A stretch of 64,000 bases of DNA, from positions 14,740-78,739 of the forward strand of contig CAVYBN010000009.1 in NCBI GenBank assembly GCA_963766795.1, written 5' to 3'. The notes below the pieces were generated by a model. That model made no database searches and was not told the origin of the DNA. It saw only the letters and a program-made list of their open reading frames with translations. Of this stretch, positions 57,584 to 62,053 are shown piece after piece. Every line of letters starts with the position of its first letter. The first letter of the stretch is position 1. The translations under genes were made by a program, and so were the position numbers. This DNA is from Candidatus Parcubacteria bacterium. GTDB lineage: Bacteria; Patescibacteriota; Minisyncoccia; Phycocordibacterales; PALSA-1337.

Positions 57584-58882
57584 ATGAAAATCTCCAAATT
57601 CCAGATCATCATCCTCGCCATCTTCGTGATCTTCACGGTCGCCGGCGTCATCGCCTTCGCGGCCTACAAAGGCGGCAACGGCAGTGCTTCATTGCCGCCG
57701 ATCACCATCTGGGGCACTTTCCCGAAGTCAGCTTTCGACCAGTATGTTTCCGAGATCAATCTGACCCTGGCGCAACAGATGAGCATACAGTATGTGCAGG
57801 AATCGCCGGTCGCTTTCCATAACGACTTCATCGCGGCTCTGGCCAGAGGACAGGGACCCGACGCCATCCTCATCCCCGCGGATCTATTGCTTCCGGAAGA
57901 GGACAAGCTTACTCTTGTCCCTTATTCGGCTCTGCCGGAGCGCACTTTTCTCGATACCTATATCCAGGAGGCTTCCATATATCTGACGCAGAACGGCATT
58001 CTCGGCATCCCGTTCTCCGTCGATCCCTTGGTCATGTACTGGGATCGGGACATGTTCAACGCCGCCGGCGTAGCCAAGCCGCCAGCGTATTGGGATCAGT
58101 TCACGGACCTCAACAAGGCCATCACGGTCAAGTCCCAGAATGGCACGGTGACCCGGAGCGCCGTGGCCATGGGAGATTTCACCAATGTCGACAACGCCCG
58201 CGAGCTTCTAGGCACTTTGCTCCTGCAGACCGGCAATCCGGTGACATCGATCTCCGCGAACGGCTCGGTCGTGAGCGCCCTTTCCGCCTCGGCCGCGGTC
58301 GATCCGACCAAAGCCGTAGATTTCTTCACGCAATCAGTCGATCCGACTAACGCGGATTATTCCTGGAATCGCTCGTGGCCGGATTCCAAGTCGGCATTCC
58401 TCTCTGGCACGCTGGCCACCTATTTCGGCTTCGCTTCGGAGATCTCCGACATCCGCGCCAAGAATCCCAATCTCAATTTCGACGTCGCGCCTCTGCCCCA
58501 GCTCCGTTCCGGCGGACAAGCCGCCGATTATGCCCGTCTCTACGGCTTCTCGATCGTCAGGGCGTCTCCCAATGCCAATACCGTCTTCCAGGCCGTCTCG
58601 ACTCTGGTAATGCCGCAGTATTTGAGCGGGCTTTCCAATACCTTGTATCTGCCTTCGGTCAGTCTCGGCATCATCCAGGCCGGTTCGAATGATCCCTACA
58701 TCGCCGTCTTCGACCGCACGGCCTTGATCGGGAAGACTTGGCTCGATGTCGATCCCTCGATCTCGACCAACATCCTCGGCTCGATGATCGGCGCGGTCAC
58801 CAGCGGGCAGAAATCCGTCAGTCAGGCGGTGAATGACGCCGAAGCCCAGCATAACGCGGCGCTACAACAAGCAATGCAGTGA
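57584..58882 (+). CDS. Extracellular solute-binding protein (ABC transporter family-1-like), orphan
   Basis: 432 aa with an N-terminal anchor and family-1 SBP-like blocks (DAILIPADLL, LGIPFSVDPLVMYWDRDMF..AGV..PP.YWDQF). No permease or ATPase gene is adjacent. Confidence 0.7.
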   Translation: MKISKFQIIILAIFVIFTVAGVIAFAAYKGGNGSASLPPITIWGTFPKSAFDQYVSEINLTLAQQMSIQYVQESPVAFHNDFIAALARGQGPDAILIPADLLLPEEDKLTLVPYSALPERTFLDTYIQEASIYLTQNGILGIPFSVDPLVMYWDRDMFNAAGVAKPPAYWDQFTDLNKAITVKSQNGTVTRSAVAMGDFTNVDNARELLGTLLLQTGNPVTSISANGSVVSALSASAAVDPTKAVDFFTQSVDPTNADYSWNRSWPDSKSAFLSGTLATYFGFASEISDIRAKNPNLNFDVAPLPQLRSGGQAADYARLYGFSIVRASPNANTVFQAVSTLVMPQYLSGLSNTLYLPSVSLGIIQAGSNDPYIAVFDRTALIGKTWLDVDPSISTNILGSMIGAVTSGQKSVSQAVNDAEAQHNAALQQAMQ

Positions 58883-59598
58883 TTACGATCAATCAAATGA
58901 AAAAAGATTCAAGATTCAAAAATCAAAAGTTTGCTGTCATTTCCACGAATCATTCTGTCATTCCCGCCCCCGGCTTTCGCCGAGGGCAGGCTCCAGCGGG
59001 AATCCAGGGTCACGCCGATTATTCTAGCGGTAATACACTGGACCCCCGCTTTCGCGGGGGTGACAAGAAAGTCGTCTTTTATGTTTCCGTTCTCCTTTTC
59101 TCCTTTTCTCCTTTTCTCCTTGTCCACAGCTCCGTCTTCGCCGCCAACAACGTCCCGGCCGTCGATCTCAACAGCCCCAGCTTCCACTTATTGCAGTGCG
59201 ACGGGCCGGATCTTTCAGGTTTGCCCAAAGATACAAAGATTACGATTTATGGCAAGAGCTACACTATTGAAGGCCAGAATCCTATCATCACCAATGCCGA
59301 TGGTTCGAATTCTCACCAATATCAGCCTTGCAACTTCCAAGGCCTGATGATCGAAGTGCAATATCTTTTAAACGTAATGACGATCGTCGCCGTTTTGGCC
59401 GCCATCGTCGGATTCGCTTATGCGGGTTATCTCTATATAACCGGGACCCAAGAGAATCTAAAGAAGGCTAGGAGCATGTTCCCAAAGCTCGCCATTGGAT
59501 TTATACTTATCCTCACGGCCTGGTTCATCGTCTATCAGATCCTGGCATGGCTGACCGGCAACGCCGGCGCGGCCGCCTTGCTAGGCAACGGCAGTTAA
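58879..59598 (+). CDS. TrbC/VirB2-like (T4SS-pilin-like) 2-TM protein, paralogue 1; true start uncertain
   Basis: C-terminal TM1 (VMTIVAVLAAIVGFAYAGYLYI), loop TGTQENLKKARS, TM2 (LAIGFILILTAWFIVYQIL). The N-terminal 60 codons are a translated family C repeat. Confidence 0.55.
   Translation: MITINQMKKDSRFKNQKFAVISTNHSVIPAPGFRRGQAPAGIQGHADYSSGNTLDPRFRGGDKKVVFYVSVLLFSFSPFLLVHSSVFAANNVPAVDLNSPSFHLLQCDGPDLSGLPKDTKITIYGKSYTIEGQNPIITNADGSNSHQYQPCNFQGLMIEVQYLLNVMTIVAVLAAIVGFAYAGYLYITGTQENLKKARSMFPKLAIGFILILTAWFIVYQILAWLTGNAGAAALLGNGS
58957..59063. repeat. Family C element, copy 4 (left arm carries a nested insertion), inside the annotated 5' part of the first pilin-like ORF
   Basis: gtcattcccgc[ccccggctttcgccgagggcaggctccag]cgggaatccagg ... 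cactggacccccgctttcgcgggggtgac. Confidence 0.8.
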
Positions 59599-59636
59599 AT
59601 TAGATACTGAGGTCGGACCTCCGTAAATTCATCCAA

Positions 59637-60257
59637 ATGAAACTCTTCCTCAAAAAATACGCGTTCGTTTTCATAACATTGTTTTTGTGCGTCGCGATGA
59701 TCTCAATAAGGCCGACAATGATTAGAGCGCAGACATGTTACGATGCCAACGATAATGTGGTCGATTGCTATAGCTCCGATGCCGTATCCGCTTCACCGAC
59801 AACACCGGCACCAGCTGGCACTGTTCAAGGTGGCGGCACGGTGACTGGAGGAGGTACTCCAGCTGGTGGCGGCACGGTAACTGGTAATGGTAATCCTGCA
59901 GGTGGCGGAACAGTCAACCCTTCATCCGGCGGCACTTTCTACCTCCAAAACCCATTGAGCAGCCAATTCACGACCGTGGGCGGGCTCGTCGGCGGCTTCA
60001 TACAGATATTCGTGTACTTGGTCGTCCTGTTCGCGGTCGTCATGATCATATATGTCGGCTTGCGGCTTGTCTTGGCGCAAGGAAACGTGGAGGAGATCAA
60101 CGAGCGCAAGGACCAATTGCTCATGCTGGTCATCGGTCTCGCGATCGTCATCGGTGCGCGCATCATCGTCCAAGTGGTCATAAGCACTTTGCAATCCACC
60201 GGCACGGTCAACCAGAATGTCATCACCAATGCCCAGAATGCTCTGAAAGGCCAATGA
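59637..60257 (+). CDS. TrbC/VirB2-like 2-TM protein, paralogue 2 (Gly-rich ectodomain)
   Basis: Signal/anchor sequence, then GG(T/N)V(T/N)G repeats, then TM1 FIQIFVYLVVLFAVVMIIYVG, loop QGNVEEINERKD, TM2 LLMLVIGLAIVIGARIIV. Confidence 0.6.
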   Translation: MKLFLKKYAFVFITLFLCVAMISIRPTMIRAQTCYDANDNVVDCYSSDAVSASPTTPAPAGTVQGGGTVTGGGTPAGGGTVTGNGNPAGGGTVNPSSGGTFYLQNPLSSQFTTVGGLVGGFIQIFVYLVVLFAVVMIIYVGLRLVLAQGNVEEINERKDQLLMLVIGLAIVIGARIIVQVVISTLQSTGTVNQNVITNAQNALKGQ

Positions 60258-60308
60258 TTTTTTTTCCTTTATACCTTTAATACTTTAATACCTTAATACT
60301 TTAATAAT

Positions 60309-61220: not shown

Positions 61221-61317
61221 TTTTAATCCACAGCACCGCTATTGCGGTCGAACGATAGCCCTTGTAGAATTAAGGCATGCATAACTGCATATTATCAATG
61301 CTTAATCATAAAATTTA

Positions 61318-61731
61318 ATGAAAAAGTTACTTTCACTCGTCGCTTTACTAGTTCCTTCCGTGGCTTTCGCCCAAGGTACGATAACAACGATCACTAACGT
61401 CAATGGCGTTGCCAGCAAGCTCACCAGCCTCGGCAACATCGCCCTGTATCTATTGACGGCTTTGGCGGTCATATACATCGTCTGGAACGTAGTCCAGTAT
61501 CTGATTCATGGCTCCGGCGAGGAAGGCCGCGGCAAGGCCAGTATGAATATCCTCTGGGGCATCATCGGCCTGTTCGTCATCGTATCCATCTGGGGATTGG
61601 TCAACATCCTGACTGGCACATTCTCCACGGAGCCGACCACTCAACCCATCCCGAACTTCGGCAATTCCACGCAGACAGGAGGAGTTCCGTCGAATAATCC
61701 GACCAGCGGAGGCGCTCCGACGGTCCAATAG
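61318..61731 (+). CDS. TrbC/VirB2-like 2-TM protein, paralogue 5
   Basis: IALYLLTALAVIYIVWNVVQYLIHGSGEEGRGKASMNILWGIIGLFVIVSIWGLVNILTGTF. Closest to paralogue 4. Confidence 0.7.
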   Translation: MKKLLSLVALLVPSVAFAQGTITTITNVNGVASKLTSLGNIALYLLTALAVIYIVWNVVQYLIHGSGEEGRGKASMNILWGIIGLFVIVSIWGLVNILTGTFSTEPTTQPIPNFGNSTQTGGVPSNNPTSGGAPTVQ

Positions 61732-61756
61732 TCAGCATTCGGTTTGTAAAGATCTG

Positions 61757-62053
61757 ATGTTTCTCAAGCTCCCGATAGCCTACGCCCAATCGTCGTCGGT
61801 CAACCCGACGACTTTTGGCAACGCGGTCAATCCGATCCTGACCAATGTCGTAGATCCGATCATCGAATTGATGTTCGCTTTGGCCATTGTGGTCTTCGCC
61901 TACGGCGTCCTCCAGCTCGTCTGGGGCGGTGAAGAAGGGCGGGCTAAGGCCAAGATAAGCATGCTCTCCGGCATCATCGGCATATTCATCATGACGGCCG
62001 CTTGGGGCATAGTCTATCTGGTCTCCAATACGGTCGGGGGGTTCGTAAAGTAG
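61757..62053 (+). CDS. TrbC/VirB2-like 2-TM protein, paralogue 6
   Basis: LMFALAIVVFAYGVLQLVWGGEEGRAKAKISMLSGIIGIFIMTAAWGIVYLVSNTV. Confidence 0.65.
   Translation: MFLKLPIAYAQSSSVNPTTFGNAVNPILTNVVDPIIELMFALAIVVFAYGVLQLVWGGEEGRAKAKISMLSGIIGIFIMTAAWGIVYLVSNTVGGFVK

Follow-up and report, generated by a model that had tools for sequence, protein, structure and literature searches.

We analyzed a 64,000-nt stretch of the genome of a Candidatus Parcubacteria bacterium (the window; all coordinates are positions in it) and describe here the segment 57584-62053, in which the gene of a MalE-like solute-binding protein (SBP) is followed by an array of six pilin-like genes (Table 1). The array consists of six consecutive open reading frames (ORFs) on the plus strand at 58879-62053, which confirmed the sizes and the position given in the original prediction, a reading of the letters alone. 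The gaps between the genes measure 25–97 bp, and the window reaches only ~2 kb beyond the last of them. An independent Logan assembly (L001) aligned to 60512-62472 without gaps at 99.9% identity and carried an identical gene 4. A promoter and terminator scan of the locus returned counts at the background level. The segment is best explained as a vertically inherited chromosomal operon that encodes the SBP and six different proteins of the Pfam family PF18895 (T4SS_pilin, "Type IV secretion system pilin"; T4SS, type IV secretion system).

Table 1. Genes and repeats of the SBP-pilin locus. Bit scores are for PF18895; fractions give the loci in which the same-position gene was the best match.
Feature	Coordinates	Strand	Remarks
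Class I SAM-dependent methyltransferase, 178 aa	57035..57571	+	Pfam Methyltransf_31/11/25; conserved upstream neighbor
MalE-like SBP, 432 aa, membrane-anchored	57584..58882	+	Pfam SBP_bac_8 (PF13416), E 8e-14
Pilin-like gene 1, 239 aa	58879..59598	+	27.1 bits; 16/17
Interspersed palindromic repeat	58950..59066		In-frame insertion in the gene 1 leader
Perfect 8-nt x 4 tandem repeat TTCTCCTT	59090..59121	+	TRF score 64; inside the gene 1 leader
Pilin-like gene 2, 206 aa, Cys-/Gly-rich repetitive ectodomain	59637..60257	+	32.8 bits; 17/17
Pilin-like gene 3, 123 aa	60309..60680	+	29.7 bits; 15/17
Pilin-like gene 4, 166 aa, Ser/Thr-rich ectodomain	60720..61220	+	38.1 bits; 15/17
Pilin-like gene 5, 137 aa	61318..61731	+	44.5 bits; 14/17
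Pilin-like gene 6, 98 aa, very short A-x-A leader	61757..62053	+	34.3 bits; 15/17

The original prediction had called the six products T4SS-pilin-like, and a profile search bore this out: all six exceeded the PF18895 gathering score of 26.6 bits (Table 1). They also display the pattern of PF18895 arrays, with a leader and a hairpin in each protein, tandem divergent paralogues, and a host among the Patescibacteria. Five of the six matched NF045849, the NCBIfam profile of a pilin-like conjugal transfer family of Mycoplasma integrated conjugative elements (ICEs), with E values from 4e-7 to 8e-4 that lie below its 40-bit cut-off. Gene 5 has 198 homologues, nearly all of which are PF18895 proteins. 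Judged from these profile matches, all six genes belong to the PF18895 family.

Hydropathy analysis revealed a leader and two hydrophobic segments, with a short charged loop between them, in each of the six genes. An AlphaFold2 (AF2) model of gene 5, built on an alignment of 53 sequences, contained helices at residues 2–17 (the leader), 28–64, and 68–101 (pLDDT 71). The plan of a signal peptide or N-terminal anchor followed by two transmembrane (TM) helices, as originally proposed, holds for all members with one reservation: the leader of gene 6 has only 10–15 residues (A-x-A) and is not a normal signal peptide, a short N-terminus that is kept in its orthologues (97–102 aa). Aligned over the hairpin, the six genes are 18–55% identical to each other. 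The motif WG(L/I)VN(I/L)L..TF, thought to be common to all six, is strict in genes 3–5 only; the equivalent in gene 6 reads WGIVYLVSNTV, and the sequences of genes 1 and 2 depart from the motif. When orthologues are compared, it is the N-terminal ectodomains that vary, apart from a Cys pair in subunit 1, and the hairpins that are conserved. Two further repeats touch the array: an 18/36-nt repeat (59828-59908) encodes the Gly-rich ectodomain of gene 2, and an AT-rich 8/16-nt tandem repeat, CTTTAATA, lies at 60266-60306 directly 5' of gene 3.

The ectodomain of gene 1, which precedes its two-helix hairpin, carries the two invariant Cys residues (CDGP...PC(N/D)F; C46 and C90 in the orthologue alignment). 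NCBI places the start of this gene at 58897 (233 aa), and the mature part is predicted to begin at ~59143 (VFA|ANN). The predicted length of 239 aa is that of the ORF, and ~46 of these residues are the translation of the interspersed palindromic repeat, inserted in the leader, after its basic N-terminus and ahead of its hydrophobic core; the orthologues measure 152–219 aa. The repeat, whose translation reads '..VIPAKAGIQ..LD(S/P)RFRG(G/N)DKK', occurs again in the window at ~3236-3312, ~45996-46085, and ~53036-53124. Different repeat-derived insertions occupy the same site of gene 1 in two relatives (P0242 and P0245), and two others (P0243 and P0246) have none. We had considered that gene 1 is frameshifted, with an out-of-frame ATG at 59081, and dropped this idea because an in-frame repeat insertion, also found in relatives, is the simpler explanation. 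Loss of one unit from the TTCTCCTT 8-mer repeat downstream of this ATG would bring the ATG in frame with the mature pilin and put the upstream start out of frame. The 8-mer repeat may thus be a slipped-strand switch, or a coincidence.

To place the array in a wider context, we used genes 5, 4, and 3 as queries against GTDB genomes and collected 80 related loci (best identity, 66%). All 80 belong to the Parcubacteria/Paceibacteria by label or synteny, with titles that include Ca. Taylorbacteria, Paceibacterota, Nomurabacteria, Wolfebacteria, Adlerbacteria, Niyogibacteria, and Patescibacteria group. These relatives assign the window to a bacterium of the Parcubacteria/Paceibacteria class. A hidden Markov model (HMM) built from the six genes detected the array in every related locus; among 63 complete loci, 24 held five genes and 26 held six. 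In a more distant lineage (L045, L052, L055-L057, L065, L068, L071, and L072), the first three members are ~400, 315, and 275 aa long and the last three are small (~135, 143, and 108 aa), and the six-slot plan is kept. Some database labels deserve caution. Three loci with the gyrA-methyltransferase-SBP-pilin block of the candidate phyla radiation (CPR) are filed under metagenome-assembled genomes (MAGs) of Acidobacteria, Flavobacteriaceae, and Gammaproteobacteria (L007, L049, and L077, respectively), probably through binning contamination, and where the synteny is of the Parcubacteria type, many labels that read "uncultured Candidatus Saccharibacteria" look unreliable.

Each window gene is 40–65% identical to the gene at the same position in other species, versus 18–37% to its neighbors in the array (55% for genes 4 and 5). 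We scored this positional signal in 17 compact six-gene loci. The mean bit score per window gene was 82–117 against the same position and 3–94 against other positions; the same position was the best match in 14–17 of the 17 loci, depending on the gene, and in 80% of 1632 cross-locus comparisons. Genes 4 and 5, in which a near-identical block had been noticed, are the closest pair. Their similarity is real at the protein level, yet they are only 55% identical overall (61% at the nucleotide level), share a codon at 29 of 60 identical residues, and have diverged at synonymous sites. Neither the codon comparison nor the diagonal of the orthologue matrix gave any sign of recent duplication or gene conversion among the paralogues, genes 4 and 5 included. 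Because genes 4 and 5 have diverged in DNA and codons and each member has position-specific orthologues, the duplications are old and maintained by selection. Taken together, these sequence comparisons argue for a fixed set of five or six ancient, position-specific subunits and not for a variation cassette; the multi-subunit reading in the original prediction fits the data.

The SBP had been described as an orphan neighbor. On the contrary, no partner of the array is more constant, and its position there is not incidental. An SBP homologue lies directly upstream of pilin 1 in ~63 of the 67 related loci that have one, where the distance from its end to pilin 1 ranges from -55 to +71 bp and is often an overlap of 0–4 bp. 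The exceptions are L040 and L059, with gaps of ~450 bp, and L044, which has no SBP; when L044 was checked for a T4SS cluster, what turned up was a PBP, a PilB-type T2SSE ATPase, and PolA. Further upstream, a methyltransferase homologue just precedes the SBP gene in 60 related loci, with gyrA before it in 53–57, and the housekeeping order S1-MBL-gyrA-methyltransferase-SBP-array is kept in 50–65 loci.

In its AF2 model (pLDDT 89.5), the SBP has a MalE-like fold and an uncleaved N-terminal TM helix at residues 5–29. The top Foldseek matches were 4r9g, 6dts, and 2zyo (E ~1e-21, 3.6e-22 for 4r9g; TM 0.65–0.77), that is, binding proteins for manno-oligosaccharide, maltodextrin, and cyclodextrin. Many aromatic residues are invariant among the SBP homologues. 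No permease or ATPase of an ABC importer (BPD_transp, ABC_tran) was found in the window or among the recurrent neighbors in ~65 loci; one related locus has an exporter-type ABC gene.

The SBP is also fused in frame to pilin 1 in five protein clusters (P0139, P0142, P0179, P0210, and P0225; 586–659 aa). The fusion genes were located at L090 6001-7794, L091 689-2482, and L092 5931-7691 and represent at least two lineages, one recovered from an NCBI MAG and an independent Logan assembly, the other from one NCBI MAG. In each of the three loci inspected, four more PF18895 genes follow the fusion. Such a fusion is topologically consistent on the predicted architecture, because the SBP and the ectodomain of subunit 1 would both be extracytoplasmic. 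A profile of subunit 1 recovered 71 cluster representatives at E<=1e-30, one of which is an SBP fusion, and three subunit 1 representatives (P0335, P0351, and P0354) carry other large N-terminal domains. Slot 1 thus seems to be a carrier of exposed modules.

The window holds housekeeping genes, which encode GyrB, GyrA, FtsZ, FtsA, S1, several aminoacyl-tRNA synthetases, TsaD, signal peptidase, and EF-Ts, and it also holds IS1595 and IS200 transposases and toxin-antitoxin-like genes. Downstream of the related arrays, the genes vary and include IF-2, NifS-like, DUF4446, SPFH, and ClpB. Between the MBL-fold gene and gyrA of the window lie the transposase genes of the IS1595 family (ISXO2-like; 49396-50319) and of the IS200-like Y1 type (51735-52295). 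The gyrA gene itself (53222-55764, plus strand) showed five successive +1 frame changes in a tblastn comparison with the GyrA of a relative, running through frames 2, 3, 1, 2, 3, and 1. A pseudogene, or an error in the assembly at this place, could explain these changes; the six pilin genes, the SBP gene, and gyrB are intact. An ASCH-domain gene (55774-56127) and a minus-strand ORF of 130 aa (56457-56849) separate gyrA from the methyltransferase gene, an interval that holds no conserved gene in most related loci. Elsewhere in the window, we noted a DUF3800-IX RNA (Rfam RF02968) at 16576-16642 on the plus strand (51.6 bits versus a gathering score of 36.8) and a gene for a 23S rRNA intervening-sequence protein (PF05635; 38022-38414, minus strand) that adjoins ftsZ. 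A tRNA at 32674-32748 (plus strand) received no amino-acid assignment and a 4-nt anticodon, 'gatc', from ARAGORN and scored as a normal tRNA in Rfam (62.5 bits).

Tandem pilin arrays of this type have been published. VirB2-like pilins (PF04956 or PF18895) were surveyed in 1948 VirB4-containing Patescibacteria assemblies (Quinonero-Coronel et al. 2025, PMC12102498): the pilins lie near virB4 in 1135 of them and away from it in 813, so that linkage is common and not obligatory. The survey lists 441 arrays of 2–11 pilin genes with a mean identity of 25% and a maximum of 54%, and PF18895 arrays of 2–11 genes in 383 Patescibacteria assemblies. The identities within the window array fall in this range. 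The closest described case is the T4SS cluster of Southlakia epibionticum, where the six genes SEML1_0014-0019 all belong to PF18895 (Wang et al. 2023, PMC10633639); the supplementary Tn-seq table rates every one of them as ES (essential). Like the window array, that of S. epibionticum ML1 is a chromosomal series of six tandem, divergent PF18895 genes of ~100–200 aa in a CPR host. Unlike the window array, it sits inside a T4SS cluster (virB4, prgI, virB6) close to recF, where the numbering of the genome begins, whereas the window array follows gyrA without a T4SS gene in 58 kb upstream or 2 kb downstream. The S. epibionticum cluster lists no SBP, whereas an SBP gene precedes the window-type arrays and is sometimes fused to them. 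Neither these two papers nor our full-text literature searches, the coverage of which is incomplete, mention the gyrA-methyltransferase-SBP-array block, the positional orthology, or the SBP::pilin fusion. Provisionally, then, the array type was already known and its SBP-linked organization is apparently undescribed.

As in canonical TrbC/VirB2 proteins (PF04956; for example, Agrobacterium VirB2), two hydrophobic helices joined by a short loop come after a leader, and Ala-Gln stands at the predicted leader cleavage site of genes 2, 3, 5, and 6, a pair that is invariant in the eight annotated VirB2/TrbC proteins that we aligned. Unlike canonical virB2, which encodes one major pilin and lies between virB1 and virB3 in the reference loci, the window array consists of six distinct paralogues without adjacent virB1, virB3, or virB4, and its host is monoderm. 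Several virB2-like genes in tandem are also found in the T4SS of Bartonella and Anaplasma. Those paralogues are regarded as variation sets of one pilin role, whereas the window paralogues are old, ordered, and conserved one to one between species. The window SBP shares its two-lobe fold with MalE, CpMnBP1 (4r9g), and T. maritima MalE2 (6dts); it differs from the binding proteins of ABC importers in that it sits on an uncleaved TM helix, lacks an adjacent permease or ATPase gene in the ~65 loci, and has a pilin-like hairpin protein as its translationally coupled or fused partner.

We favor, as rather probable, that the six proteins form a fixed heteromeric VirB2-like set that is assembled by a T4SS encoded elsewhere, and that subunit 1 displays a carbohydrate-binding protein for host recognition or capture. 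The pilins would be made with a leader and inserted in the membrane as N-out/C-out helical hairpins. By analogy with the six essential PF18895 genes of S. epibionticum, they would be six non-interchangeable subunits of one envelope structure, which would be the outer part of a Patescibacterial T4SS or else a heteromeric pilus of short length. Its assembly would fall to a VirB4/VirB6 machine with genes elsewhere in the genome. Subunit 1, with its disulfide-type ectodomain and, in some lineages, its fusion to the binding protein, would accordingly be the one that displays the sugar-binding module; this module may recognize or capture host-surface glycans or oligosaccharides for a host-dependent cell.

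The kinship with TrbC/VirB2, as originally proposed, finds support in a position-2 orthologue (L090:7799-8302) that is 41% identical to gene 2 and scored 41.9 bits with PF18895 and 36.3 bits with PF04956 (E 6.9e-9; gathering score, 27.9 bits). Because it passes both profiles, this protein bridges the window family and TrbC/VirB2; another position-2 orthologue reached 26.7 bits with PF04956. A number of results weigh on the other side. The window genes themselves all remained below the PF04956 threshold, with a maximum of 17.8 bits for gene 2. In hhalign, three pilin alignments matched eight annotated MPF_T VirB2/TrbC proteins from plasmids with probabilities of 0.3–6.9%, which neither supports nor excludes homology. 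A Foldseek search of the PDB with the gene 5 model returned generic helical hairpins only (best E ~1), and the helical hairpin is a generic fold; a sequence-profile search of the PDB gave no match. The link of the window genes to canonical TrbC/VirB2 is thus indirect, and direct homology to VirB2 is inferred. Pfam scans of ~60 ORFs across the 64-kb window found no VirB4, VirD4, VirB6, VirB3, or PrgI, in agreement with the original prediction, and no unassigned multi-TM protein. No T4SS gene lies within 58 kb upstream or 2 kb downstream of the array, no T4SS ATPase was found among 30 large ORFs sampled within 10 kb of the 80 related arrays, and none of VirB4, VirD4, VirB6, and PrgI was among the recurrent neighbors of these arrays. 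With no machinery near the arrays, the T4SS link rests on the family name and on the Saccharibacteria.

These gaps lend some weight to a membrane device that is independent of a T4SS, in which the hairpins would form a platform or pore that works with the SBP in the uptake or sensing of host carbohydrates, and "pilin" would be no more than a family label. Throughout the 80 loci the array adjoins the SBP and never VirB4. The SBP has no ABC permease partner nearby and in some lineages forms a single protein with hairpin 1, and homology to canonical VirB2 was not significant in direct tests. However, we consider such a device unlikely: PF18895 genes lie inside the T4SS cluster of Saccharibacteria and are essential there, the position-2 orthologue exceeds the TrbC/VirB2 Pfam threshold, and the matches to the Mycoplasma ICE pilin-like family are significant, if sub-threshold. 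Moreover, no transporter of such an architecture is known, and the operon has no gene for an energizing ATPase. The idea that tandem paralogues serve antigenic or host-range variation, proposed for the VirB2 proteins of Bartonella and Anaplasma, was extended to Patescibacteria in PMC12102498, where the arrays are suggested to confer host-range versatility by analogy with these two genera; the original prediction had also entertained surface variation. It agrees with the variable, low-complexity ectodomains on conserved hairpins and with tandem repeats that could alter length, which lie in the leader of gene 1, the ectodomain of gene 2, and 5' of gene 3. It is nevertheless distinctly improbable here, since each paralogue has its own same-position orthologue across species, gene number is held at five or six, and recent duplication or gene conversion is not seen even in genes 4 and 5. 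The individually essential six genes of S. epibionticum also fit poorly with interchangeable variants.

Still less credible, and in our estimate very improbable, is that the array is the remnant of an integrated conjugative element whose pilin genes were left after loss of the rest. The family name and the IS1595 and IS200-type transposase genes 7–9 kb upstream could suggest it. However, the conserved housekeeping synteny (50–65 loci), a GC content that resembles the surroundings, and the lack of any tblastn match of gene 5 in 72,556 plasmids or 50,697 phage records led us to reject a mobile-element origin. Genes for a relaxase and a coupling protein are absent as well, and there are already indications that the array follows phylogeny and is under purifying selection. 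Overall, the interpretation in the original prediction is partly supported; tandem arrays of this kind had already been published (PMC12102498, PMC10633639).

A bolder proposal is on balance doubtful though possible. In the Parcubacteria/Paceibacteria, a VirB2-like set of five or six fixed subunits would have lost its link to the T4SS gene cluster and gained one to a MalE-like protein, to give a dedicated "binding protein on a pilin stalk" with which the epibiont recognizes or harvests host glycans. Such an apparatus might work independently of a T4SS, or it might be an accessory branch, new to science, of the CPR T4SS.

The T4SS of CPR bacteria, with its unusual pilin series, has neither a relaxase nor a coupling protein and yet proved essential in the only species tested. 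Our analysis indicates that five or six distinct subunits of ancient origin make up an ordered pilin set in the largest CPR class, and that this set is genetically welded to a carbohydrate-binding protein. The ordered set and its SBP linkage argue against an "antigenic variation" reading. They single out the SBP, subunit 1, and the natural fusions between them, and they lead to the hypothesis that a ligand-binding module is presented on the structure, where it would serve contact with the host or the capture of nutrients.

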